DNA of 19,757 nucleotides, taken from Synergistaceae bacterium (GTDB taxonomy: Bacteria > Synergistota > Synergistia > Synergistales > Aminobacteriaceae). The stretch covers positions 1 to 19,757 of the forward strand of contig JAISMH010000015.1 of assembly GCA_031276855.1 (NCBI GenBank), read 5' to 3'. Below, piece by piece: positions 1,489 to 16,995 of this stretch (within the stretch, counting starts at the first letter, position 1; each line of letters begins with the position of its first letter). Under the pieces are notes generated by a model. It saw nothing but the letters and a program-made list of their open reading frames with translations, searched no databases and was not told the DNA's origin. The position numbers were made by a program, and so were the translations under genes.

Positions 1489-1619
1489 TGCGGGGTTGGC
1501 GGGATATTTTCCGGGCCGGGCGCTTTAGTTTGGCGCGCGGGTGACCGACAAAGAGGATAGCAGCGGTGAAAGCCGCTCGGGAAACGGCCTCAAGGAATGG
1601 GGTTTGCAATTTTCGCGGA

Positions 1620-1637
1620 GCGATAAAAACTTATCGC
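1620..1637 (+). promoter_or_regulatory. Inverted repeat GCGATAA-N4-TTATCGC abutting the flgE SD (GGGAGGG). The half-site resembles a sigma-28 -10 element (GCCGATAA).
   Basis: The 7-bp arms are exact reverse complements. The repeat ends 3 nt before the SD. Confidence 0.4.
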
Positions 1638-1655
1638 GGGAGGGATTCATATAAA

Positions 1656-3764
1656 ATGTTGAGATCGCTTATGACGGCGGTGACGGGCGTTCGGTCGCAT
1701 CAGACGATGCTGGACGTGACGGGAAACAACATCGCGAACGTCAACACCACGGGGTTCAAAAAAGACGCCACGATCTTTCAGGATCTTCTGTATCAGACGT
1801 CTCAGGGCGCCACGGGGCCGGGAGACGCGAGGGGCGGCGTCAACCCCGCCCAGGTCGGGTTGGGCGTGAAGGTCGGGGCCATCGAGACCATCCACTCGCA
1901 GGGCGGCGCCCAGTACACGGGCAACAAGTCGGACATGATGATCGAAGGGGAGGGCTATTTCGTCTTCCGCAACGGAATCAGCCGAATCTACAGCCGCGCG
2001 GGCAACTTCACGCTGGACGCCGACAAGAAGCTGGTGCACTCCGGGACCGGTTACGTGGTGCAGGGCTACGAGATGGTGCAGAACCCCGCGAAGGCCACGG
2101 AGTACATCAAGGCGGGCGACATCAGCGACATCGTCATCCCGATAGGCAAGGAAATGGAGGCCCGCGCGACAAGCGTCGTGGGGGTCAAGAACAACTTGGA
2201 CGCCACGAAAGACCCCTATCTGCCGATAGGCTACGCGGATATTGAGTATAGCGACGAAACCGGGCCCGCCAAGGTCAAGATCGGCGGTATTGAGTACGAC
2301 GTGAGTTTCAAGACGAATACTGCAGGCACAACCGCCGGCACAGGGTATCTGACTGTCAACTTGGCCACAGGCGGGACGCCAGTATCCATCCAGCTTAATA
2401 TGACGGGGATCAAAGATGGGAAACCTGTTTTGGGAATAGAGGGTGCTATGGGAACTCCACCCGTTGCTACTGTGACTTTGAGCGGTGGAACAACGGCCAC
2501 GGTAGCCTATAACAACGATACCGGTATTTTGAAACTGACAGATTCGACTACTGGCTCACGGACATTAGGAGCGACGCTTTGGGAAATCAACCTGAAGGAG
2601 AACATGAACTACAATGCGTCCAGCATTTCAGGTGTTGTTCCAGCCGCTCTCAACCCAGGAGGTGGGCAGACTTACAATTACAGCTTTATTACGGAGTTTA
2701 GTGAAAATGCTCTCAGCGGGTCTCCGGCGCAGCTTACAATCTGGTACTATGGAAGTTCTCCGGCAGACGCTACCAACAAAGATTTTGGAAAGCTCACAGC
2801 CCAAGTTTCGTTTAAGTCGGACGGTACATTCGATTCGGTGACACCCCTGACAGCGACTGCCGGCACAGGAACGTGGCCTACGTGGCTCACTGTTGACAGC
2901 ACCGATCCCACTAAACCAAACATGCTTCAGGTAGTCGTTTCGGAAAGCAATTCTTCCGTACTGGAGATGAAGGTCGCTAAAGATGCGACCGCTACTTCTT
3001 TCGATACGGTCAACCAGATCACGCAGGGCGGATTCGAGCAGACGAAATTGACGGTCTACGACTGCCAAGGGAACCCCTACACGATGGAAATCACGTTCAA
3101 GAAGCTGACGAAAGACCGCTGGCGGTGGGAGGCCTTCTTCCCGGAGAATCCCGAGCTTTTCAACGTGCCCCCGTCGGGGGAACTGAAGTTCGGCCCTTGC
3201 GGCAAACTCAAGTTTCCGAAGGACGGGGCGGACATCTACGTCCCCTTCTCCCTGCTCGGGACGAAGAACGAGACCATTCACCTGGACTTCAGCAACAAGT
3301 ATTTCAAGGGCGACGATTACGTCTGGGACACCGACGCCCTGGAGGGCCTGACGCAGTACGCCTCGGCCAGCACGGCGAAGGCCTACTATCAGGACGGCTA
3401 CCAGATGGGCGTCCTGAACAACTACACCGTGGGCAACGACGGAACGATCACGGGCATCTACACCAACAGCCAGACCCAGCCCATATACCGCGTGGCCCTG
3501 GCGCAGTTCGCCAACCCGATGGGCCTCGACAAGGTGGGCAGCACCATGTTCCGCGAATCGATCAACTCCGGCATGGCGCAGATCGACGCGGCGTCGGACA
3601 ACGGGTCGGGAACCATCGCCGGCGGCACGCTCGAAATGTCGAACGTGGATCTGACGGAGGAGTTCACGCGCCTCATCATCGCGCAGCGCGGCTTTCAGGC
3701 GAACACCCGGGTCGTGACGACCAGCGACCAGATTCTGGAAGAAGTCGTCAACCTGAAACGGTAA
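1656..3764 (+). CDS. flgE: Flagellar hook protein FlgE, long form (about 702 aa) with a large central insertion domain.
   Basis: N-terminus MLRSLMTAVTGVRSHQTMLDVTGNNIANVNTTGFK and C-terminus GTLEMSNVDLTEEFTRLIIAQRGFQANTRVVTTSDQILEEVVNLKR are the canonical flagellar rod/hook terminal segments. RBS GGGAGGG lies 8 nt upstream of ATG 1656. The track ORF starts at 1566, but the ATG at 1656 with an SD is preferred. Confidence 0.93.
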   Translation: MLRSLMTAVTGVRSHQTMLDVTGNNIANVNTTGFKKDATIFQDLLYQTSQGATGPGDARGGVNPAQVGLGVKVGAIETIHSQGGAQYTGNKSDMMIEGEGYFVFRNGISRIYSRAGNFTLDADKKLVHSGTGYVVQGYEMVQNPAKATEYIKAGDISDIVIPIGKEMEARATSVVGVKNNLDATKDPYLPIGYADIEYSDETGPAKVKIGGIEYDVSFKTNTAGTTAGTGYLTVNLATGGTPVSIQLNMTGIKDGKPVLGIEGAMGTPPVATVTLSGGTTATVAYNNDTGILKLTDSTTGSRTLGATLWEINLKENMNYNASSISGVVPAALNPGGGQTYNYSFITEFSENALSGSPAQLTIWYYGSSPADATNKDFGKLTAQVSFKSDGTFDSVTPLTATAGTGTWPTWLTVDSTDPTKPNMLQVVVSESNSSVLEMKVAKDATATSFDTVNQITQGGFEQTKLTVYDCQGNPYTMEITFKKLTKDRWRWEAFFPENPELFNVPPSGELKFGPCGKLKFPKDGADIYVPFSLLGTKNETIHLDFSNKYFKGDDYVWDTDALEGLTQYASASTAKAYYQDGYQMGVLNNYTVGNDGTITGIYTNSQTQPIYRVALAQFANPMGLDKVGSTMFRESINSGMAQIDAASDNGSGTIAGGTLEMSNVDLTEEFTRLIIAQRGFQANTRVVTTSDQILEEVVNLKR

Positions 3765-7230: not shown

Positions 7231-8342
7231 TGGATAATCTGTTGAGCCAGGATGAAATAAACTCTCTTCTCGGCGGAGGCGACGCCCCTTCAGGCTCCGC
7301 GGGGCTTTCTATGGAAGACACGCAGATTCTGAACGAGGTCGCGAGCATTTTCTCGAACGCGGAGAACAACGTGTTCAGCATGCTGGCGGGCAAGGAGGTC
7401 AACTCCAAAGGCGGGGAGACCGAGGTTCTTTCTCAGGCGGAGTTCAAGGCGAAACTTGGCGCCGAGACGCCTTTCGTTTTCAGGGCGACCTTCGACGGCT
7501 TCGACGACGTGCCTTTGATTTTTGCCGTCGGGCGCCGCGGCGCGCTGGCGCTGGCCGATTTGATGATGGGCGGAGAGGGGAAGGACGTCCCCGAGGAGGC
7601 CAGCGAGCTTTACCTGAACGCGGCTCAGGAGGGATTGAGCCAGGTCGTGGGCTCCGCCTTCACCAGCCTGAGCGGCCTGATGGGCGGCCGCCGCCTGATG
7701 CCCGAAAACACGAAGTCCGCTTTGGAAGAGGAAGACGACTGGGCGGTATTTCCCGCCTTGGACGCCGAGGCCAGGGTGTGGGCCAGCTTCTCCGAGGTGG
7801 AAATAGAGGGGCTGGAGCCCTTCGCGATATGGGCCGCCATTCCTTTGGATTCCGTGAAAACCATGGCGGAGCTGATTCGTCAAAATATGGGAGGAGGGGA
7901 AAAGCAGCCGGAGTCCCCTTCTTTATCTTCTTCTCCGTCTCCCCAGGCGCCCCGCGCGGCTCAGGCGGCGGGCGCTTCGCCCGCTTCCGCTCCTTCGACG
8001 AGAGGCGGCCAGCGTCCCGGGCCCGTGACCGACGTGCGCCCCGCGGAGTTCACTCCCCTCTCGGCCAAGGGCCCGGCGGGGAGCGGCAGCAAGATCGACC
8101 TGATCGCGGATATTCCGGTGCGTGTCACCGTGGAACTGGGGAAGACGAGAAAAAATATCTCCGAGATCCTGGGCATGACGACGGGTTCCGTCATCGAACT
8201 GGACAAAATGGCGGGGGAGCCCGTGGACGTGCTCGTCAACGGAAAGCTGATCGCCAAGGGCGAGGTCGTCGTGATCGACGAAAACTTCGGAGTGCGCGTC
8301 ACCGAGGTCTTGGGCGCGGCTCCGAAGGCCTACGCGGTGTGA
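7230..8342 (+). CDS. fliY: Flagellar motor switch protein FliY/FliN, long form. FliM-like N-terminal peptide, middle domain, and C-terminal FliN/SpoA domain.
   Basis: N-terminus MDNLLSQDEINSLLGG (LSQxEIxxLL CheY-binding motif). C-terminus IPVRVTVELGKTRKNISEILGMTTGSVIELDKMAGEPVDVLVNGKLIAKGEVVVIDENFGVRVTEV is a canonical FliN. ATG overlaps the fliM stop (TGATG). Confidence 0.85.
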   Translation: MDNLLSQDEINSLLGGGDAPSGSAGLSMEDTQILNEVASIFSNAENNVFSMLAGKEVNSKGGETEVLSQAEFKAKLGAETPFVFRATFDGFDDVPLIFAVGRRGALALADLMMGGEGKDVPEEASELYLNAAQEGLSQVVGSAFTSLSGLMGGRRLMPENTKSALEEEDDWAVFPALDAEARVWASFSEVEIEGLEPFAIWAAIPLDSVKTMAELIRQNMGGGEKQPESPSLSSSPSPQAPRAAQAAGASPASAPSTRGGQRPGPVTDVRPAEFTPLSAKGPAGSGSKIDLIADIPVRVTVELGKTRKNISEILGMTTGSVIELDKMAGEPVDVLVNGKLIAKGEVVVIDENFGVRVTEVLGAAPKAYAV

Positions 8343-8449
8343 GTTTGCCGCTTCGATTCAAAGGAGCTGCGATTCGAAAAGGGCTGCCGCGCTTCTTTGC
8401 ATACGGTAATTGTCCGCAGAAAAAGTCTTCGTCCGCCGGGAGATGCGTA

Positions 8450-8458
8450 TGATATAAT
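8450..8458 (+). promoter_or_regulatory. Extended -10 promoter candidate (TGATATAAT) inside the 315-nt fliY-cheY spacer. The -35 is poor.
   Basis: TGnTATAAT consensus match at 8450-8458, about 200 nt upstream of cheY. Confidence 0.3.
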
Positions 8459-8657
8459 CACTTCGGCGTTGCTTTGGGGTTCCGCGCCGAAACGTGAACG
8501 TGAAGAGTTTTTTCGGCGGCGCCGGCAAGAAGAACGGGAGCAGTACGAAAAACACGGAAGCGGCCGGAAACGCAGGGAAAATTTCCGGCAGAAGCCGAAA
8601 AAGGCTGAAAGTTTTGTTTGAATTTCAGAGAATCTTAGGTAAGCGAGGGGTTGCAGC

Positions 8658-9020
8658 ATGGGCAAAAAGGTTCTGATAGTGGATGACGCTGCCTTTATGC
8701 GTATGATGTTGAAGGATATTCTCCAGAAACACAGTTTCGAGATTGTGGGAGAAGCAGAAAACGGAAAGCTCGGGGTTGCGGCCTATCAGAAATACAAGCC
8801 CGACATCGTGACGATGGATATAACGATGCCGGAAATGAACGGCATCGACGCCGTAAAGGCCATCAAGACGCTGGATCCTGCCGCGAAGATCGTGATGGTC
8901 TCCGCGATGGGACAGCAGCCGATGGTCATCGAGGCCATTCAGGCGGGCGCCAACGACTTCATCGTCAAGCCCTTCCAACCGGAGCGCGTGATCGAGGCCA
9001 TTTCCAAAGTCTTGGGTTAA
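8658..9020 (+). CDS. cheY: Chemotaxis response regulator CheY (single REC domain, 120 aa).
   Basis: KVLIVDDAAFMRMML…DIVTMDITMPEMNGIDAVKAIK…KIVMVSAMGQQ…AGANDFIVKPF. All REC catalytic residues are present (DD, D-phosphoacceptor in TMDI, T/S, K). SD GCGAGGGG 7 nt upstream. Confidence 0.92.
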   Translation: MGKKVLIVDDAAFMRMMLKDILQKHSFEIVGEAENGKLGVAAYQKYKPDIVTMDITMPEMNGIDAVKAIKTLDPAAKIVMVSAMGQQPMVIEAIQAGANDFIVKPFQPERVIEAISKVLG

Positions 9021-9151
9021 AAACGGGAATTTTGGGTTAAAGCCGAAAGTTTTGGGTTGAAACCGAGGGTTCCGGGTAAAATCCAATAGTTCCGGATCGA
9101 GCCCAAAGTTTCGGGCTGAATTCGAGATTCCGGGTTGGACTGCCGAAGGGG
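9012..9151. repeat. Degenerate tandem array with a 20-bp period and 7 units (consensus about YYGGGTTRAARCCGARRGTT). It starts inside the last codons of cheY and fills the cheY-fliO spacer.
   Basis: Units at 9012, 9032, 9052, 9072, 9092, 9112 and 9132. The first three begin TTGGGTTAA, TTGGGTTAA and TTGGGTTGA, and identity decays towards fliO. Confidence 0.8.
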
Positions 9152-9197
9152 TGGCTGAGCTACGGGGGAAGTCGGTTTTACCGCTTATATTACGCGT

Positions 9198-9461
9198 ATG
9201 GCTCTGGCTCTTGCGGTGATGGCTGTCATTGCGGTCGCCGCTGTTCGTTTTGTCAAAAGCGGAGCCCGCGGAGGGCGGAGCGGGGCGCGTGTCGAAGTTA
9301 TGGCATCCTTGCCTTTGGGTAAGGATGTTTTTTTCGTTCTGCGGTGCGGTCCCGAGGTTTTTGCCCTGACATCCGGGCACGCGGGGACTCATCTGATAGG
9401 CAGGTGGAAATATGAAGAATGGCTTCGATGGGAAGAAAAGGAGAAGGCTTGCGAAAGCTGA
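9198..9461 (+). CDS. fliO: Flagellar biosynthesis protein FliO (FliZ of Bacillus), short form.
   Basis: One TM helix (LALAVMAVIAVAAV) followed by RVEVMASLPLGKDVFFVLRCGPEVFALTSGHAGTHLIG. This matches the FliO core (…ERVPLGPRESLVLVEVGGRVLVLGVT…). Its position between cheY and fliP is conserved. An in-frame stop at 9156 bounds the start, and the SD is weak. Confidence 0.55.
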   Translation: MALALAVMAVIAVAAVRFVKSGARGGRSGARVEVMASLPLGKDVFFVLRCGPEVFALTSGHAGTHLIGRWKYEEWLRWEEKEKACES

Positions 9462-10245
9462 GTCATTTTTCTTCTTCTGCTTTTTGACCGGTCTCGTCCT
9501 CGCGGTCTTTTTTGCCGCTTCGCCCGCCGAAGCCGCTTTTGTCGAGGAAGCGCCGAGAATACCCATTCCGCTTCTGCAGTTGGGCGTCGTCCCGGCGGAC
9601 TCCCCGCAGGATGTCGCCGTTTCCTTGCAGATACTGGCTCTTTTGACGGTGCTGACCCTGGCCCCGGCCATTTTGCTGATGCTGACGAGCTTCACGCGGA
9701 TCGTCGTGGTGCTGGGGTTCATTCAGCGCGCGATCGGTCTCCAGCAGTCGCCGCCCCAGCAGACCATCGTCAGCCTCGCCCTCTTCCTCGCCCTCTTCAC
9801 GATGTATCCGACGTGGAACCGCATCTACGAGAACGCCCTCGCCCCCTATCTGGCGAAGGAGATCGACTCCCCGCGGGCGTGGACGGAGACGATCACGCCC
9901 CTGAGGGAGTTCATGTTCCGTTACACCCGTCAGGAGGAGCTGTCCCTGATGGTCTCCATGGCGAACCTCGAACGCCCGGAGAACCGGGAGGAGGTTCCGA
10001 CGCGGGTTCTGATCCCCGCTTTCATGCTGAGCGAGCTCAAGACCGCTTTTCAGATGGGCGTGGTGATCTACATTCCCTTCATCATCGTGGACATGATCGT
10101 GTCGAGCGTCCTTTTGGCGATGGGCATGATGATGCTGCCCCCCATGATGATTTCTCTGCCGTTCAAGATCCTGCTCTTCGTGATGGCCGACGGCTGGAAC
10201 CTCGTCGTCGTGAGCCTTCTCAAGAGCTTCACGAACGTGCCGTAA
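9412..10245 (+). CDS. fliP: Flagellar type III export apparatus protein FliP.
   Basis: Signal peptide, then the conserved LTLAPAILLMLTSFTRIVVVLGFIQRAIGLQQSPP and C-terminal YIPFIIVDMIVSSVLLAMGMMMLPP motifs. AGGTGGA SD. Overlaps the 3' end of fliO by 50 nt. Confidence 0.92.
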   Translation: MKNGFDGKKRRRLAKAESFFFFCFLTGLVLAVFFAASPAEAAFVEEAPRIPIPLLQLGVVPADSPQDVAVSLQILALLTVLTLAPAILLMLTSFTRIVVVLGFIQRAIGLQQSPPQQTIVSLALFLALFTMYPTWNRIYENALAPYLAKEIDSPRAWTETITPLREFMFRYTRQEELSLMVSMANLERPENREEVPTRVLIPAFMLSELKTAFQMGVVIYIPFIIVDMIVSSVLLAMGMMMLPPMMISLPFKILLFVMADGWNLVVVSLLKSFTNVP

Positions 10246-10257
10246 GGGGGCGGGCTC

Positions 10258-10533
10258 ATGGACATCGTTCCGATCAACATGTTCGACATCTTAAACGAGG
10301 CGGTCTGGACGATGCTCCTCGTCACCATGCCCATTCTTCTGGTGGCGATGGGCGTGGGGCTCATTATCGGCATCGTGCAGACGGCGACGTCCATTCAGGA
10401 GCAGACGCTGATCTTCATCCCGAAGATTTTGGCCGTGTTTTTGTTCATCATCCTCGTCGGGCCCTGGATGGCCGACAAGATTCTGGGCATCACTCGGGAA
10501 ATTCTGGGGCACCTCGAGAGGTTCATTCAATGA
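10258..10533 (+). CDS. fliQ: Flagellar export apparatus protein FliQ.
   Basis: 91 aa with two TM segments. LLVTMPILLVAMGVGLIIGIVQTATSIQEQTLIFIPKILAVFL is the FliQ signature. Confidence 0.9.
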   Translation: MDIVPINMFDILNEAVWTMLLVTMPILLVAMGVGLIIGIVQTATSIQEQTLIFIPKILAVFLFIILVGPWMADKILGITREILGHLERFIQ

Positions 10534-10570
10534 ATCCAGTAAATCCAATGAATCCAGTAAATCCGATGAG
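10528..10570. repeat. 18-bp tandem repeat CAATGAATCCAGTAAATC, 2.4 copies, at the fliQ stop and in the fliQ-fliR spacer.
   Basis: Copies at 10528-10545 and 10546-10563 are perfect. A partial third copy is CGATGAG. Confidence 0.9.
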
Positions 10571-11436: not shown

Positions 11437-11500
11437 TATAAATTCGGTGGATATAAATTCGATGGCTATAAATTCGATGAATATAAATCCCGTGACTGAA
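11437..11500. repeat. 15-bp tandem repeat TATAAATTCGATGRN, 4 copies plus degenerate extras, in the fliR-flhB spacer.
   Basis: Units at 11437, 11452, 11467 and 11482. Each carries a TATAAAT box and an in-frame ATG or GTG. Confidence 0.9.
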
Positions 11501-11530
11501 TCGAGCGATATGAATTCTCGGCGGCCGTCG

Positions 11531-12631
11531 ATGAAAACAATCCCCCGTTTCGTTTTCGACATTCAATTCTTCGCCCAGGAGCGCACGGAGGCGGCGACGC
11601 CCAAGAAGCGCCAGAAGGTGCGCTCCGAGGGGAAGGTCTGCAAAAGCCGCGACCTGACCGCCGCCGTCGAAATTCTGACGGGCCTCGTGGGGCTCGTGAT
11701 GTTCGGGCCCTCGATCTTCGGCGGGCTCATCGACTATTTCCGCGAGATGATCGGGGTTCTGGGGGAGGAATCGCTTCTGCGGGCTGGCTGGTTTTACCGC
11801 CTGGAGTTCACGGCGCTCCGGGCCTACTTCGGCGCCTGGCTCCTGCCGGGGCTCCTCATCGCGGCCTTCACCACGGCCGTGACGGTCTATCAAATCGGCT
11901 GGGTCATCAGCTTCGAGCCTTTCAAATTCGACTTGAACCGCCTGAACCCCGTCTCCGGCATGAAAAAGATCATCTCCCTGCGCTCTCTCGTGGAGCTGCT
12001 GAAGGGGCTTCTGAAGGCCTCCCTCTTCGTCCTCGTCATCTATATCGCCATGCGGGACAAACTGCCCGCCGCCGTGTACGCGATGCAGCTTTCGATGGCG
12101 GCAGGGGCCCTGCTCTTCTGGAACCTGCTGTGGGACCTCTCGATGCGGCTGGCCGCGATGCTTTTGGTCATGGCGCTCGTGGACTACCTGTACCAAAAGT
12201 GGGATTATGAAAAGTCCATACGGATGAGCAAGCAGGAGGTCAAGGAAGAGTTCAAGCAGATGGAGGGCGACCCTCAGATCAAAAGCAAGATCCGCCAGAA
12301 ACAGCGGGAGCTCGCGAAGAAGAGAATGATGTCCTCCGTGCCCAAGGCGGACGTGGTCATCACGAACCCCACCACCCTGGCGATCGCTTTGGTGTACGAC
12401 CGCAAAATCATGGCCGCGCCTCAAATCACGGCGAAGGGCAAGGGCTTCGTCGCCCGGAAGATCCGCGAGCTGGCCGCGGCGCACGGGGTCCCCGTCATCG
12501 AAAACAAACCCCTAGCCTGGGCGCTTTACGAGTCCGCCGATGTGGGGGACGAGGTGCCGGAGAACCTCTACCGCGGCGTCGCCGAAATTCTGGCGATGGT
12601 CTACAAACTCGCCGGAAAACAGCCGTCTTAG
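11531..12631 (+). CDS. flhB: Flagellar export switch protein FlhB.
   Basis: N-terminus MKTIPRFVFDIQFFAQERTEAATPKKRQKVRSEGKVCKSRDL parallels Bacillus FlhB (MKLRVDLQFFAGEKTEKATPKKR…). The C-terminal autocleavage region contains NPTTLAIALVY, which carries the NPTH-like motif. The track ORF extends in-frame upstream to GTG 11447 through the 15-bp repeats. ATG 11531 is preferred by homology. Confidence 0.9.
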   Translation: MKTIPRFVFDIQFFAQERTEAATPKKRQKVRSEGKVCKSRDLTAAVEILTGLVGLVMFGPSIFGGLIDYFREMIGVLGEESLLRAGWFYRLEFTALRAYFGAWLLPGLLIAAFTTAVTVYQIGWVISFEPFKFDLNRLNPVSGMKKIISLRSLVELLKGLLKASLFVLVIYIAMRDKLPAAVYAMQLSMAAGALLFWNLLWDLSMRLAAMLLVMALVDYLYQKWDYEKSIRMSKQEVKEEFKQMEGDPQIKSKIRQKQRELAKKRMMSSVPKADVVITNPTTLAIALVYDRKIMAAPQITAKGKGFVARKIRELAAAHGVPVIENKPLAWALYESADVGDEVPENLYRGVAEILAMVYKLAGKQPS

Positions 12632-12752
12632 GGCCGTTTTCAGCCGCGGCGGATCTGCTTGGACGAGCCCTCTAATCGTTCACAAAGTTCTTGCGCGGAA
12701 GTCCCGCCGTATTGTAAGATAAAAATACATTATACACGGGGAGAGGGTCGTC

Positions 12753-14015
12753 ATGCGGAGAGCGGGAAGAAAAACGGATTCATGGGAGTTCCTGAAATTA
12801 AGGAAGCTCTTGAATTTCCTGAGGTTCATTAAATTTGCGGCGTGTTTTCTCTTCCTGTTTTCCCATCCCGCTCTCCCCGCTTTTTGCGCCGAGGCCGACA
12901 CGTCCCTTTGGACGTGGGACGTGCTGGTCATTCCCCCCGACGAGGGCTGGCAGAGCGAGAAAGGTCTTTCCGTTCAAAATGCGCTCCAATGGCACGCGGC
13001 CGAAATCTCGGAGAGCGGAGCCGGCATTCGGGGTCATGACCTCCGATTCGTCTTTCTCCCGCCCCTGACGGAGGACTCCGCGCGGAGTTTCGCCCTTCCC
13101 AACGACCCCCGCGCCGTCGCCGTCATGAGCTTCGCGTCGAACCCCGTGGACAGGGCGCTGGCGGATAGAGAACTGGCCGGCCGCTCCGCGGGAAGCGGGC
13201 TTCCCCTCTTCCTGGCCGGCGGAGAAAACGTTTCCCTCTTCGAGGGGAGCCGTCCTGTCCCGCGGCTTTTCGCCCTCGACCTTTTTCGGGACTACCGCTG
13301 TCAGGCTTTCGCGGATTACGCGTCGAAAATCGCGGCAAAAGACGCCCGGGTGGGCGTCATGGGCGCGCGGTTCACGCTCAACGAGGAACGCGAGGCCAAA
13401 ATTTGCTTCGACCTCTTCTCGGAAGCGGGTTTCATGCCCATGCCCTACTGGGTGGACGCCTCCGTGAGGGACTCCTTCTCCATGGTCGAACAGGAGATCG
13501 TCGACTACAGCAACGGCATTCTCATCAGCTACATCGGGAGCATGGGCACGAAGGAAATCTGGCGCGGCATCATGGGACACCAGTCCCCTTACCGGATCTG
13601 GTACGGCGGGGTTCCCGACAAATCCTTCCTTTCTTATAGAGGCATGATCTTCGCCGATCAGAACATGTATCTGGACGCGCTGGGGGGCTTTGAGCGGCTG
13701 AAGCGCGACCTGTGGTCGTCGCGCGCCCTGTCCGCCCCGGACAAGGTCGCGGCGGGGCGGGCCAACGCCCTCGCGTTCTGGCTGATTCAGGCCCTGAAGG
13801 CCCTTCCGGGCGATTTGGACAGCATCGACAGGAACGCGCTGCTTTCCCTTCTGGCCGAAGCGCGGGACATTCCCTTCGGCTCCCAGACGCTGAATATCGA
13901 CCGGGACACCCACCGCCCCGGAACGCGGCGGGTCTTCATCATGGAAATGCGCAACAGGAGCTTTTTTGTCCTGGACACCCTCGGCGTGCGGGGACTGAAA
14001 CACCGCGGCGATTGA
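12753..14015 (+). CDS. Secreted periplasmic-binding-protein-like protein (type I PBP fold, LivJ-like), Sec signal peptide. No adjacent ABC permease or ATPase.
   Basis: N-terminal hydrophobic signal sequence (FLRFIKFAACFLFLFSHPALPAFCAEA). Alternating beta-alpha pattern: VLVIPPDEGWQ…, VGVMGARFTLNEE…, ILISYIGSMG…. GGGGAGAGGG SD 6 nt upstream. The family assignment is by pattern only. Confidence 0.55.
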   Translation: MRRAGRKTDSWEFLKLRKLLNFLRFIKFAACFLFLFSHPALPAFCAEADTSLWTWDVLVIPPDEGWQSEKGLSVQNALQWHAAEISESGAGIRGHDLRFVFLPPLTEDSARSFALPNDPRAVAVMSFASNPVDRALADRELAGRSAGSGLPLFLAGGENVSLFEGSRPVPRLFALDLFRDYRCQAFADYASKIAAKDARVGVMGARFTLNEEREAKICFDLFSEAGFMPMPYWVDASVRDSFSMVEQEIVDYSNGILISYIGSMGTKEIWRGIMGHQSPYRIWYGGVPDKSFLSYRGMIFADQNMYLDALGGFERLKRDLWSSRALSAPDKVAAGRANALAFWLIQALKALPGDLDSIDRNALLSLLAEARDIPFGSQTLNIDRDTHRPGTRRVFIMEMRNRSFFVLDTLGVRGLKHRGD

Positions 14016-14164: not shown

Positions 14165-14929
14165 ATGGAAGCAGGCGATATGACTACAGGCGTTGCGGAA
14201 CGGCTGGCGGAGTGCCTGAAAAAGAAGAAAACCGACTGCGTGACGCTGGGGAGCCTGCCCGTTTCGCTGAAAAGGCTGCTGACGGGGAAACCCAGGCCCG
14301 CCGCCGCCGAGCTCGAAAAATGCGCCACCCCGCACCTCGGGGAAAACCTGATGCTGAAACGGAGCGGGCGGTACGTTTACCTCGCGCTCCGGCAGCCCGA
14401 CGAGTCGCTGCTGCTCGGCATCCTTCGGAAGAGGGCCGGGAAGAGCCCCAGCGCGAACAACACCCCCTTCAGGAAAGAAGAATTCATCGCCGTCCTGAAC
14501 CGCCTGATCGAGCAGGGAAAAATCCTTGTCAGGCTCAACAAAGACTGCAAACCCCTCCTTTTCCCGATTCCGGCCCGGAGCCCGGAGGCCCCGGCCGGAG
14601 CGGAAAAAGCGGGCCTGAACGCAAATCTGAATATAAATCAGAATGCAAATCAGGAAGCGGGGCGGGAGAGCGTTTCCGCGGAGCGGTTCGAGAGCGCGTA
14701 CCGGGAGCTGGAAGGGGGGAAGTTCTTTGTCCGCGTCTGCGACCTCCGCCGCCGTCTGGGCTGGGGGCGGAAGGAGTTCGACGGGACGGCGGCCGCGCTT
14801 CGGGACGCGGGGAAAATCCAGCTGCAGTCCGGGGACACCGCCTACTTCAGCGAGCGGGACATCGCGGACAGCTTCATCGACGAGAACGGCTTTCGGATGC
14901 TCACCCTGATGTGGCTCGGGCGGACGTAG
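14165..14929 (+). CDS. Hypothetical protein (254 aa) with two globular halves separated by an Ala/Asn-rich linker. Each half resembles a winged helix.
   Basis: GGAGG SD 9 nt upstream of ATG 14165. GC3-rich codon usage typical of this genome. No recognisable catalytic motif. Linker …PARSPEAPAGAEKAGLNANLNINQNANQEAG…. Confidence 0.55.
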   Translation: MEAGDMTTGVAERLAECLKKKKTDCVTLGSLPVSLKRLLTGKPRPAAAELEKCATPHLGENLMLKRSGRYVYLALRQPDESLLLGILRKRAGKSPSANNTPFRKEEFIAVLNRLIEQGKILVRLNKDCKPLLFPIPARSPEAPAGAEKAGLNANLNINQNANQEAGRESVSAERFESAYRELEGGKFFVRVCDLRRRLGWGRKEFDGTAAALRDAGKIQLQSGDTAYFSERDIADSFIDENGFRMLTLMWLGRT

Positions 14930-14937
14930 CCCGGAGG

Positions 14938-14979
14938 AACGGGGCGCGTTCCACGCCGCCCCGTTAATTTGAAATTTTG
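14938..14979 (+). terminator. Candidate intrinsic terminator or attenuator between the 254-aa gene and the NTPase gene.
   Basis: 9-bp GC-rich stem AACGGGGCG/CGCCCCGTT (14938-14946 pairs with 14957-14965) with a 10-nt loop, followed by AATTTGAAATTTTG. The T-tract is interrupted. Confidence 0.35.
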
Positions 14980-15006
14980 AACCTGAGTGTTTTTCTGGAG
15001 ATGAAA

Positions 15007-16995
15007 ATGAGCGCTTTCGGGATTCGGGAACAGATTTTTCAGAACAACCCCTTTTTTTCCGGCATCGCCTCCGACCCTTGGGACAACACGGACCCCGACG
15101 TCCCCTCCCTGAACGAGGAAGCCTGCCGGCACCTCTGCGGGCTGGTTCTCGCCAAGAGCCGGAACCCCTGCGCGGCCTCGGCCGGGCTGATTCTGGGCGA
15201 GGCGGGGATGGGCAAGACGCACCTCCTGAAGCGCCTTCTGCGCTACGTTCGGAAGGAAGGCATCGCGGCGCTCTTCGCGTCCATCACTCCCCTGCCGGAC
15301 CCCGGCAGTCCCATGCGGCACCTCCTGCGGGAGATCGCCCTCGACCTGTCGGGCAGAGGGATCTACGAAGACAGGCGGACGAAGCCCCTGACGCGGCGGA
15401 GCGTCACCCAGTTCGACTATTTGCTCGACAAGGCCGCGGCGGCCTGCCGGAAGGACGAGGAGGACTCGAAACCGCGGACGGGCATTCTCCGCTTCCTGAG
15501 CGACCGCTTCCTGAGCGACCGCTTTCCAGGCGCCCGCCTTCCGGGCGCCCGCTTGCGGAGCGGCGCCGCGCTTCTTCGGGAGCGGTGCCGGGGTATTCAC
15601 CCCCGCCTGCTCGGGGCCGTGTTCGGCCGCTCCGACCCCCGCCAGCGGGAGGCCGTTCTGGAGTGGCTCGAAAACGGCGCCCGGGCGGAAGGGGAAGAGG
15701 AGGCGCGGAGGGTTCTCGTGTCCCTGGGAATGCTTCTGGAATACTGCGGAATGTCGCTGATCGTCTGCTTCGACCAGCTGGACGGGATGAGGGACGACGC
15801 CCTGATCACGGCGTTCGGGGACACCGTCCATTTTCTGGTGAACGACGTGAAGGGGATGCTGCCTCTGGCGTTCGTTCGGATGAACACGTGGAGCGACCGT
15901 TTTTCACGGCTCGATCCGGCCGTGACGCAGCGGCTTTCCGGGAACGAGATGTTCCTCTACGCCTGCACGCTGGAGCAGGCGCGGGAGCTCATCCGGGTCC
16001 GGCTCGAATCCCGCTTCAAGGGCGATACCGAGGAAAAGTTTCAATGGCTGATGGAGCGGCTGGAGGGGAAGCTGAAAGCGGGGTATTCTCCGCGCGCCGT
16101 GATCGAACTGGCCAACCGCGAAATCGTGCGCGAAAGAGAACCCGAAAAGGAGCCCCTTGAAAAAGACCCAATCGAAAGGGAACTCGCCGAATTGGCATCC
16201 CTCGGCGGAGAACCGCGCGGCGGCGAGCCGCGCAGCGAAGAACCCGCCGGAGAACCCTTTAATGTCTCGAATTCCTTCGATGTCTCGAATGCCTTTAATA
16301 TCCCGAATGCCTTCGATACCCTCGATTTAGTCGAGCCTTCCGATACCTCTTCGGCCGGCCCTTCTTTGACTGGCTCTTCTTTAACTGAAGACGGGCCGGG
16401 GGCGATTCTGGAAGTCTTCGCGGACGAATACCGCAAAGCGCGCAAAAAGGCGGACGCCGGCGTCAGGCGTTCCCCCGATCCCGAAAGCCTTGTCCGCGCC
16501 CTCGAAACCTGCCTGCTCTCCCGCGCGGACTTCACAGACGTCCGCCGCACGGAGGACGGCTACATCGCCCTGACGGCGCGGCGCGAGGGAGGCGGGGCCT
16601 GCGCCTTCATCGTCAGCACGCAAGAAAACCACCGCGCGGTCCAGACGGCGCTGGCGCGCGGGGTCTCCTTCCTGTGGGATCACCCCGACGGGGAATGCTT
16701 CTGCGTCGCCGCCGGGCGCCAGGATTTCAGACTCCGCAAAAATTGGCCGAGCGTGCAGAAAGAGCTGCAAAAATTTCTGGAGGCAAAGGGCACCGTCTTC
16801 TATTTGAACCGCAGACAGGCCGCGGCCTGGTACGCTCTGGCGGCCCTCCGCCTCGAGGTGGACAGGGGAAACATCCGGCTGCCCGCTCCCGACGGAAAAC
16901 AGCGCGCGGCCCAAATAGAGGACCTCGCGCTGTTCCTGAGACAGAGTTCTGAAAAAGACCTGCCGGAGTGGTGGGATGCGAAAAATGGATTGTGA
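15007..16995 (+). CDS. Large P-loop NTPase (AAA_16/STAND-like) with an uncharacterised C-terminal domain of about 250 aa and internal in-frame tandem repeats.
   Basis: Walker A LILGEAGMGKTHLLKRLL and Walker B-like LIVCFDQLDGMRDD. GGAG SD 6 nt upstream of ATG 15007. The track start is TTG 14977. Confidence 0.7.
   Translation: MSAFGIREQIFQNNPFFSGIASDPWDNTDPDVPSLNEEACRHLCGLVLAKSRNPCAASAGLILGEAGMGKTHLLKRLLRYVRKEGIAALFASITPLPDPGSPMRHLLREIALDLSGRGIYEDRRTKPLTRRSVTQFDYLLDKAAAACRKDEEDSKPRTGILRFLSDRFLSDRFPGARLPGARLRSGAALLRERCRGIHPRLLGAVFGRSDPRQREAVLEWLENGARAEGEEEARRVLVSLGMLLEYCGMSLIVCFDQLDGMRDDALITAFGDTVHFLVNDVKGMLPLAFVRMNTWSDRFSRLDPAVTQRLSGNEMFLYACTLEQARELIRVRLESRFKGDTEEKFQWLMERLEGKLKAGYSPRAVIELANREIVREREPEKEPLEKDPIERELAELASLGGEPRGGEPRSEEPAGEPFNVSNSFDVSNAFNIPNAFDTLDLVEPSDTSSAGPSLTGSSLTEDGPGAILEVFADEYRKARKKADAGVRRSPDPESLVRALETCLLSRADFTDVRRTEDGYIALTARREGGGACAFIVSTQENHRAVQTALARGVSFLWDHPDGECFCVAAGRQDFRLRKNWPSVQKELQKFLEAKGTVFYLNRRQAAAWYALAALRLEVDRGNIRLPAPDGKQRAAQIEDLALFLRQSSEKDLPEWWDAKNGL
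15490..15555 (+). repeat. In-frame 15-bp tandem duplications inside the NTPase gene (CGCTTCCTGAGCGAC x2 perfect, then CCRGGCGCCCGCYTK x2), encoding FLSDR-FLSDR-FPGARL-PGARL.
   Basis: Read directly. Confidence 0.9.
16201..16320 (+). repeat. In-frame block of 15-bp periodic repeats in the NTPase gene, encoding GEPRG-GEPRS-EEPAG and FNVSN-SFDVSN-AFNIPN-AFD.
   Basis: Read directly. Low-complexity linker between the NTPase domain and the C-terminal domain. Confidence 0.8.

Follow-up and report, generated by a model that had tools for sequence, protein, structure and literature searches.

Described Systems Closest to the Locus

Computationally predicted 'mobile gene neighbourhoods' with an Orc/CDC6 ATPase were described by Krishnan, Burroughs, Iyer and Aravind (Nucleic Acids Res 2024, PMC10853773, section 22); the same group mentions them again in a paper of 2026. 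As outlined in that section, the set consists of an Orc/CDC6 ATPase, an inactive restriction endonuclease (REase) domain placed before a C-terminal winged helix-turn-helix (wHTH), an active REase, a HerA/FtsK protein (with FtsK-alpha in one subset) and a multi-wHTH protein. The present analysis concerns two adjacent genes at positions 14165-16995 of a 19,757-nucleotide (nt) stretch of DNA, called the window below, which is the whole 19.8-kb contig JAISMH010000015.1 of a Synergistaceae metagenome-assembled genome (MAG; assembly GCA_031276855.1). The first gene encodes a tandem winged-helix protein, referred to as the partner, and the second encodes an ATPase. Together the two genes probably make up the conserved core of an anti-invader (conflict) system that is rare and horizontally scattered and belongs to the 'Orc/CDC6 ATPase + inactive REase + winged-helix + HerA/FtsK capture' type; the window would hold a reduced two-gene derivative of it.

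The original prediction had treated this architecture as unrecognised, while it fits the Orc/CDC6-iREase-wHTH, multi-wHTH and REase/HerA-FtsK neighbourhoods as section 22 outlines them, and the family agrees with that outline point by point in domain set and order. The window itself supplies an ATPase of the ORC/Cdc6 clade, an alpha/beta domain without catalytic residues after the AAA+ lid, and a separate fast-evolving multi-winged-helix protein. Homologous loci add an active Cas4-like REase fused to FtsK-alpha and FtsK domains, as well as a C-terminal tail on the ATPase. Unlike the published set, the window copy has no active REase, no HerA/FtsK pump and no ATPase C-terminal tail. Neither a recurrent, selected two-gene form without the tail nor the co-variation of tail and effector gene figures in the description given in section 22, and both are reported here as new.

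Similarity to DndFGH and SspFGH lies in the third gene of homologous loci, whose FtsK domain matches the SspH C-terminus, and in the multi-wHTH partner, which is conceptually like DndG. However, Dnd/Ssp modification genes are absent, the ATPase is ORC-like and not DndF- or DndH-like, and the window is devoid of an FtsK domain. Furthermore, the partner has no PADLOC match and thus none to any DndG/DptG-type model if the library holds one; DndG, SspB and FokI were not among its fold matches in the PDB.

The BrxC protein of BREX is about 1200 amino acids (aa) in length and works with PglZ, PglX, BrxA and BrxB. Fold similarity of the ATPase module is the only link between BrxC and the present family: PglZ, PglX/BrxX, BrxA and BrxB are absent from the window and the related loci, and no sequence-level match to BrxC was obtained. 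Compared with the Orc1/Cdc6 initiators and the Tn7-family TnsC, the ATPase shows only 9-18% identity, a different C-terminal domain and an extra helical insert of ~110 aa, and no origin or transposon context surrounds the window pair.

The Two Genes and Their Products

The features of the pair are listed below; residue numbers of the ATPase count from position 15001, and L004 is the locus of the closest relative.

14165-14929, + strand: partner gene, 254 aa; open reading frame (ORF) with GGAGG 8 nt 5' of the ATG
14617-14653, + strand: 12-nt in-frame tandem repeat NANLNINQNANQ, found by Tandem Repeats Finder (TRF) in the disordered linker of the partner, predicted local distance difference test (pLDDT) 41-43
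14938-14965, + strand: GC-rich hairpin with a 12-bp stem in the 71-77-nt gap between the genes, followed by UUAAUUUGAAAUUUUG
15007-16995, + strand: ATPase gene; ORF 14977-16995, start placed by homology with L004
15040-15114, + strand: N-terminal conserved motif of the ATPase, aa 14-38 (N16 P17 F18 ... P26 W27 ... P32 D33 ... N38), pLDDT 78-93
15115-16128, + strand: ORC/Cdc6-clade AAA+ module, core and helical lid, aa ~39-376
15489-15562, + strand: 15-nt in-frame tandem repeat FLSDRFLSDRFPGARLPGARL (TRF) in a surface loop of the helical insert, pLDDT <50 at aa 170-183
16204-16392, + strand: disordered interdomain linker, aa ~402-464, pLDDT 28-47, with three in-frame tandem repeats
16462-16950, + strand: family-specific C-terminal alpha/beta domain, aa ~488-650 (~165 aa), AlphaFold2 (AF2) pLDDT 88-98

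Both ORFs are intact on the + strand, and they had rightly been called as genes. A collection of 5.8 billion proteins contains 74 homologues of the ATPase and 29 of the partner, and the ratio of nonsynonymous to synonymous substitution rates (dN/dS) is 0.33-0.34; the pair is therefore made of real genes and not of chance ORFs. For the ATPase, the ATG at 15007 (662 aa) is favoured by the 'MSVFGIREQ' start in L004 and by GGAG at 14996-14999. The ATG at 15001 would give 664 aa, and the source annotation begins at a TTG at 14977. The length of 663 aa given at first was one codon off, which is immaterial.

In the AF2 model of the partner, a wHTH (aa 10-75) is followed by a degenerate winged helix (aa 79-134) and a second wHTH (aa 163-250), so that two folded halves, aa 10-134 and 163-250, flank a disordered low-complexity linker at aa 141-164. 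Fold searches led to winged-helix proteins, with weak tandem winged-helix matches only against the PDB. An earlier reading of the protein as two winged-helix-like halves joined by a linker was borne out by this model and these searches. The partner has no match in Pfam or NCBIfam and none in PADLOC at E <= 0.1, and a partner-family profile search of PDB sequences returned nothing meaningful. The insert made by the 12-nt repeat is lineage-specific, being found in the window sequence only in the alignment.

The ATPase was modelled with a pLDDT of 81.4 and a predicted template modelling score (pTM) of 0.76. In the fold search, ORC/Cdc6 ranked first, ahead of TnsC and BrxC. Matches from Pfam, NCBIfam and PADLOC were at the P-loop level only, and a family profile search of PDB sequences yielded nothing meaningful. 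The predicted Walker A and Walker B motifs are present: GEAGMGKT at G66-T73 (nt 15196-15219) and the strand LIVCFDQLD (hhhhDQLD) at aa 253-261 (nt 15757-15783). Among 52 aligned homologues, G66, G69, G71, K72, T73, C256, F257 and D258 are invariant, and R311, R334 and R365 of the AAA+ module are invariant or nearly so. The spacing between the two motifs is ~185 aa. A long spacing containing a tandem repeat had been predicted, and both were confirmed, but the length is owed mainly to a family-wide helical insert of ~110 aa (H137-H248), to which the repeat at 15489-15562 is a small lineage-specific addition. Ahead of the AAA+ core, the columns of the motif NPF-x7-PW-x4-PD-x4-N are invariant or nearly invariant in the same 52 homologues, and this motif could be the interface for the partner. 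The interdomain linker, which carries repeats at 16203-16256, 16262-16317 and 16357-16387 (TRF), is much shorter in homologues.

A C-terminal domain of about 250 aa resembling nothing known had been noted at first. It has indeed no Pfam or PDB sequence family; it is, however, a disordered linker (aa 406-462) plus a folded domain of ~165 aa. The search against Pfam was made with 5 sequences and then with 20 members at E <= 10, and no family recurred. The order of secondary-structure elements, alpha-beta-beta-beta-alpha-beta-alpha-beta-alpha, is that of the PD-(D/E)xK (restriction-endonuclease) core, and no D...(D/E)xK is conserved among homologues. Based on this order and on the published description, the domain probably corresponds to the 'inactive REase' of the published set. 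When its profile was run against 1.84 billion representatives, 156 clusters (50% identity) were retrieved, all of one architecture; in complete proteins the domain occupies residues ~400-600 of proteins of 600-730 aa or of fusions of ~1000 aa. The domain belongs to this architecture alone, and its family is rare.

Pairing of the Genes and the Third Gene of Related Loci

Ninety-seven related loci were gathered and scored by tblastn; 76 were assessable for the partner and 46 for a third gene. The partner was found directly upstream of the ATPase gene, on the same strand, in 70 of the 76, and the exceptions are the most divergent ATPase relatives. The two genes thus form a conserved module, as had been proposed, and the suggested check of their co-occurrence in other genomes gave this same count. 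The loci are distributed over MAGs of Synergistota, Desulfobacterota, Planctomycetota and Tectimicrobiota, with distant relatives in Corallococcus (Myxococcota), and their flanking genes differ in every lineage.

A third gene lies downstream in 22 of the 46 loci. Its N-terminus is a nuclease of the Cas4/PDDEXK_1 type (E 5e-10 to 1e-5) with the motifs GRYD...EFK...QxxxY and four cysteines. In 16 of the 46 loci this nuclease is fused to FtsK_alpha and FtsK_SpoIIIE (Pfam E 1e-31 to 5e-38), and in PADLOC the FtsK domains hit the SspH C-terminus (E 2e-60) as well as mad8 (E up to 3e-30). At locus L007 and in the proteins P0043 and P0044, the ATPase itself carries the FtsK part as a direct fusion. 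The hallmarks of defence or conflict that had been expected are found in the wider family, namely the Cas4-like nuclease-FtsK gene, the patchy distribution over phyla, the variable context and the fast evolution.

Reduced Two-Gene Form

In the window, the ATPase gene is followed by a Band_7 gene, and no nuclease, FtsK/translocase or other recognisable effector gene stands after it. The ATPase ends ~54 aa past an invariant WY and is devoid of the C-terminal tail of ~75 aa that most homologues carry. This absence of the nuclease/translocase gene and of the tail had been overlooked in the original prediction.

Scoring of tail and effector covered the 50 loci in which the 3' end of the ATPase gene was complete and the sequence ran on for at least 1 kb beyond it. 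The tail is present in 28 of these homologues. The nuclease/FtsK gene accompanies it at 25 of the 28 tailed loci versus none of the 22 tail-less ones (Fisher 5e-11, a value that does not account for kinship). The tail-less ATPases stop at one boundary, 41-88 aa past the WY, and keep all invariant ATPase residues. In a neighbour-joining (NJ) tree of the ATPase core, which carries no support values, the state without tail and effector is spread over at least five separate clades, which are nested among lineages of the three-gene form. Searches of 10 C-terminal tails against Pfam gave winged-helix-type matches below threshold only (OST-HTH E 0.023, WH_Egal E 0.12).

Selection was assessed between the window and L004. 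The partner has dN 0.15, dS 0.44 and dN/dS 0.34, and the ATPase has dN 0.17, dS 0.51 and dN/dS 0.33. The flanking Band_7 gene (L004 7711-8490) is 95% identical, with dN 0.023, dS 0.24 and dN/dS 0.09, its dN being about seven times below that of the pair. The pair is under constraint, yet its evolution is faster than that of the Band_7 gene next to it; its higher dS might reflect recombination or different codon constraints. L004 is also effector-less; the effector-less state in the window lineage predates the split from it and has been kept under purifying selection.

Partial forms of the third gene were seen elsewhere. At the locus L016, a gene for the nuclease alone precedes a 64-aa FtsK remnant (8127-9991), and L017 (8167-8370) and L084 (3472-3675) have a tailed ATPase with an FtsK remnant of ~65 aa alone, which makes them two of the three exceptions to the tail/effector rule. 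The three loci look like decay intermediates of the third gene.

Intergenic Hairpin and Transcription

The hairpin between the two genes had been taken as a candidate terminator that might separate their transcription. The hairpin is real (RNA fold centroid -20.1 kcal/mol; z-score of the whole region -1.98) and possibly acts as an attenuator or terminator; a consensus terminator scan did not call it. Separate transcription, however, is unlikely as a rule: the intergenic gap of L004 is 33 nt long and has no hairpin, and at most homologous loci the two genes abut or overlap by 4 bp. Co-transcription is expected because overlapping or abutting genes are the norm of the family, and the hairpin, though it may attenuate, does not speak for two independent units in the window.

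Proposed Mechanism

ORC/Cdc6, TnsC and BrxC oligomerise on DNA in an ATP-dependent manner. By analogy with these proteins and from the predicted folds, a model is proposed for the three-gene form in which the tandem winged-helix protein would recognise DNA, and the ORC/Cdc6-like ATPase would load onto the recognised DNA and oligomerise with the same dependence on ATP. The co-variation suggests that the C-terminal tail of the ATPase may recruit or license the Cas4-like Fe-S nuclease with its FtsK-type pump; the nuclease-pump would then reel in and cut the invading DNA. In the window copy, the nuclease-pump gene and the putative docking tail would have been lost together. Since the window pair is under selection and has kept all ATPase motifs, it most likely still functions as an ATP-dependent DNA-recognition module. 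We infer a defence role for the system, in which the reduced pair might by itself occupy or silence target DNA, or might sense for a factor encoded elsewhere.

Several points weigh against this interpretation. The examined loci are not obvious defence islands, and their neighbours are mostly metabolic genes. The ATPase has no homologue on 72,556 plasmids, 50,697 phages or the IMG/VR contigs, so that mobility is suggested by the patchy phylogeny only. A literature search found in-silico description but no experimental study of any family member, and the family was matched to the published neighbourhoods by description and not by accession. No PADLOC model fits either window protein beyond the P-loop. 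The assignment of the C-terminal domain as an inactive REase, based on the order of its structural elements and on the publication, finds no support from Pfam or hhalign; aligned by hhalign with the active Cas4-like nuclease domain that the third genes encode, its profile reached a probability of 0.4%, meaning no detectable relationship. To these are added the kinship behind the Fisher value and the unsupported tree. Defence by the window locus is an extrapolation, because its copy has no recognisable effector.

Alternative Explanations

A more far-reaching proposal, possible though doubtful, is that the tail-less form works by itself as a system without an effector and has arisen from the three-gene form repeatedly. 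The winged-helix reader would load the ATPase on foreign or modified DNA, and the assembly would block replication, transcription or segregation, or signal to an unlinked effector; the lost tail would have been the docking site of the nuclease-pump.

The pair might also be a decaying remnant, useless after the loss of its nuclease-pump effector and heading for pseudogenisation. Such decay would account for the missing effector gene and tail, the intermediates at L016, L017 and L084, the in-frame expansions of tandem repeats in loops of both window proteins, and a dN/dS of 0.33 compared with 0.09 for Band_7. It is an unlikely explanation, however: both ORFs are intact with every invariant ATPase residue kept, the repeats are found in disordered loops only, and a dN/dS of 0.33 at dS ~0.45-0.5 indicates sustained purifying selection since the split from the effector-less L004. 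Furthermore, the tail-less form occurs in at least five clades, several with many diverged members, and its common boundary 41-88 aa past the WY resembles a clean, stable architecture.

A mobile-element function, in which the pair would be a target-selection or DNA-transfer regulator similar to TnsC, MuB or TniB, with FtsK serving conjugative transfer, is judged quite improbable. No transposase, integrase, relaxase or repeat boundary was seen beside the pair in the window or in L001, L003-L005, L007, L015 or L016, nor a transposase or integrase in any of eight inspected loci; element ends were not searched for. The collections of plasmids, phages and viral contigs named above hold no homologues, and a Cas4-like nuclease fused to a pump suits the destruction of DNA better than its transfer.

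Membership in the STAND class had been suggested earlier, and a sensor of the classic STAND/NLR-like kind (Avs-type), forming oligomers on a phage protein, would share the NACHT-like Walker B (hhhhDQLD) and the weak matches in the P-loop region, namely PADLOC Avs2 (E 3.5e-4, 73 residues) and Pfam NACHT (E 0.006). The NACHT match, however, reached 16.9 bits against a cut-off of 26.7 and covers residues 62-86 only; the ATPase has neither sensor repeats nor an effector domain, and NLR structures rank below ORC/Cdc6, the top match, in the fold search. The suggestion was therefore not upheld, and a sensor of this kind is very doubtful.

A housekeeping or regulatory system tied to the neighbouring genes, for instance a regulator of the MalT-like or flagellar kind or a replication/segregation factor resembling ORC, is highly improbable. 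Flagellar adjacency is not conserved even in L004, and each lineage has other neighbours. With 156 clusters (50% identity) among 1.84 billion representatives, the family is too sparse to serve a core function. Compared with Band_7 the pair evolves fast, and the ATPase has no HTH and so no C-terminal LuxR-type HTH of MalT/LuxR regulators, nor was any profile match to a MalT-type or flagellar regulator, named beforehand as a possible outcome, obtained.

The reading of the pair as the core of a conflict system, reduced in the window, has the best support.

Genomic Setting

The window contains a flagellar cluster on the + strand, identified by Pfam scans and the ORF list, and the pair is located at the 3' boundary of the cluster and outside it. 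The other features are as follows.

1566-3764, + strand: flgE
After flgE, + strand, in this order: flbD, motA, motB, fliL, fliM, fliY/N
8658-9020, + strand: cheY-like receiver gene, followed by fliP, fliQ and fliR
11447-12631, + strand: flhB, the last flagellar gene
12753-14015, + strand: unannotated gene for a secreted protein of 420 aa
17022-17801, - strand: Band_7/SPFH gene, convergent to the ATPase gene
Also on the - strand: altronate dehydratase gene, convergent like Band_7

In flagellar clusters, flhA usually comes after flhB. In the window (11447-12753) no flhA follows flhB, and the gene of an unrelated secreted protein is found instead, which resembles a synteny break point. The pair is placed at the boundary and not inside the cluster because flhB is the last flagellar gene and flhA is not next. 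The Band_7 gene lies 24 nt past the ATPase stop in convergent orientation. In L004, the block of a 407-aa gene, the pair and Band_7 is found beside a histidine-kinase gene, and the 9-kb L004 contig contains no flagellar genes. The idea that the pair had been dropped into a conserved operon does not hold, since it sits after flhB in the window and the same block has another neighbour in L004. A flagellar role was considered for the pair and rejected, the flagellar context not being conserved, and in genome annotation the pair should not be assigned to the flagellar regulon.

The 420-aa protein has a signal-peptide-like N-terminus and no match in Pfam, NCBIfam or PADLOC; a syntenic counterpart, the 407-aa gene product with 80% identity, was found in L004 only. 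This gene and the Band_7 gene were considered as parts of the module and rejected, since no locus other than the window and L004 has them beside the pair.

Two + strand ORFs before flgE, at 131-1108 (325 aa) and 1257-1544 (95 aa), are without a Pfam match; judged by their position, they could encode hook-length-control or hook-capping proteins. A tandem repeat of three 20-nt units is located at 9006-9066, in a stretch of lower GC between the cheY-like gene and fliP. Short in-frame tandem repeats with a period of 9-18 nt are unusually common in the coding DNA of the contig. They occur at the fliQ/fliR junction (10528-10569), at the start of flhB (11437-11488, MDINSMAINSMNINP), in the partner linker (14617-14653) and in two loops of the ATPase (15489-15562 and 16203-16387); in both modelled proteins they are confined to disordered regions.

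Implications

ORC/Cdc6-like ATPases are emerging as hubs of bacterial immunity, as in BREX BrxC, DUF499 and the 'capture' systems. The window locus and its 97 relatives amount to a natural experiment, in which the nuclease-pump gene and the tail of ~75 aa come and go together in several lineages and the core of winged-helix protein and ATPase persists under selection. Such co-variation suggests a specific docking interface that lends itself to testing, and it makes one ask what role is left to an ORC-like sensor core that has no effector. The answer matters for understanding how modular defence systems are built up and taken apart.

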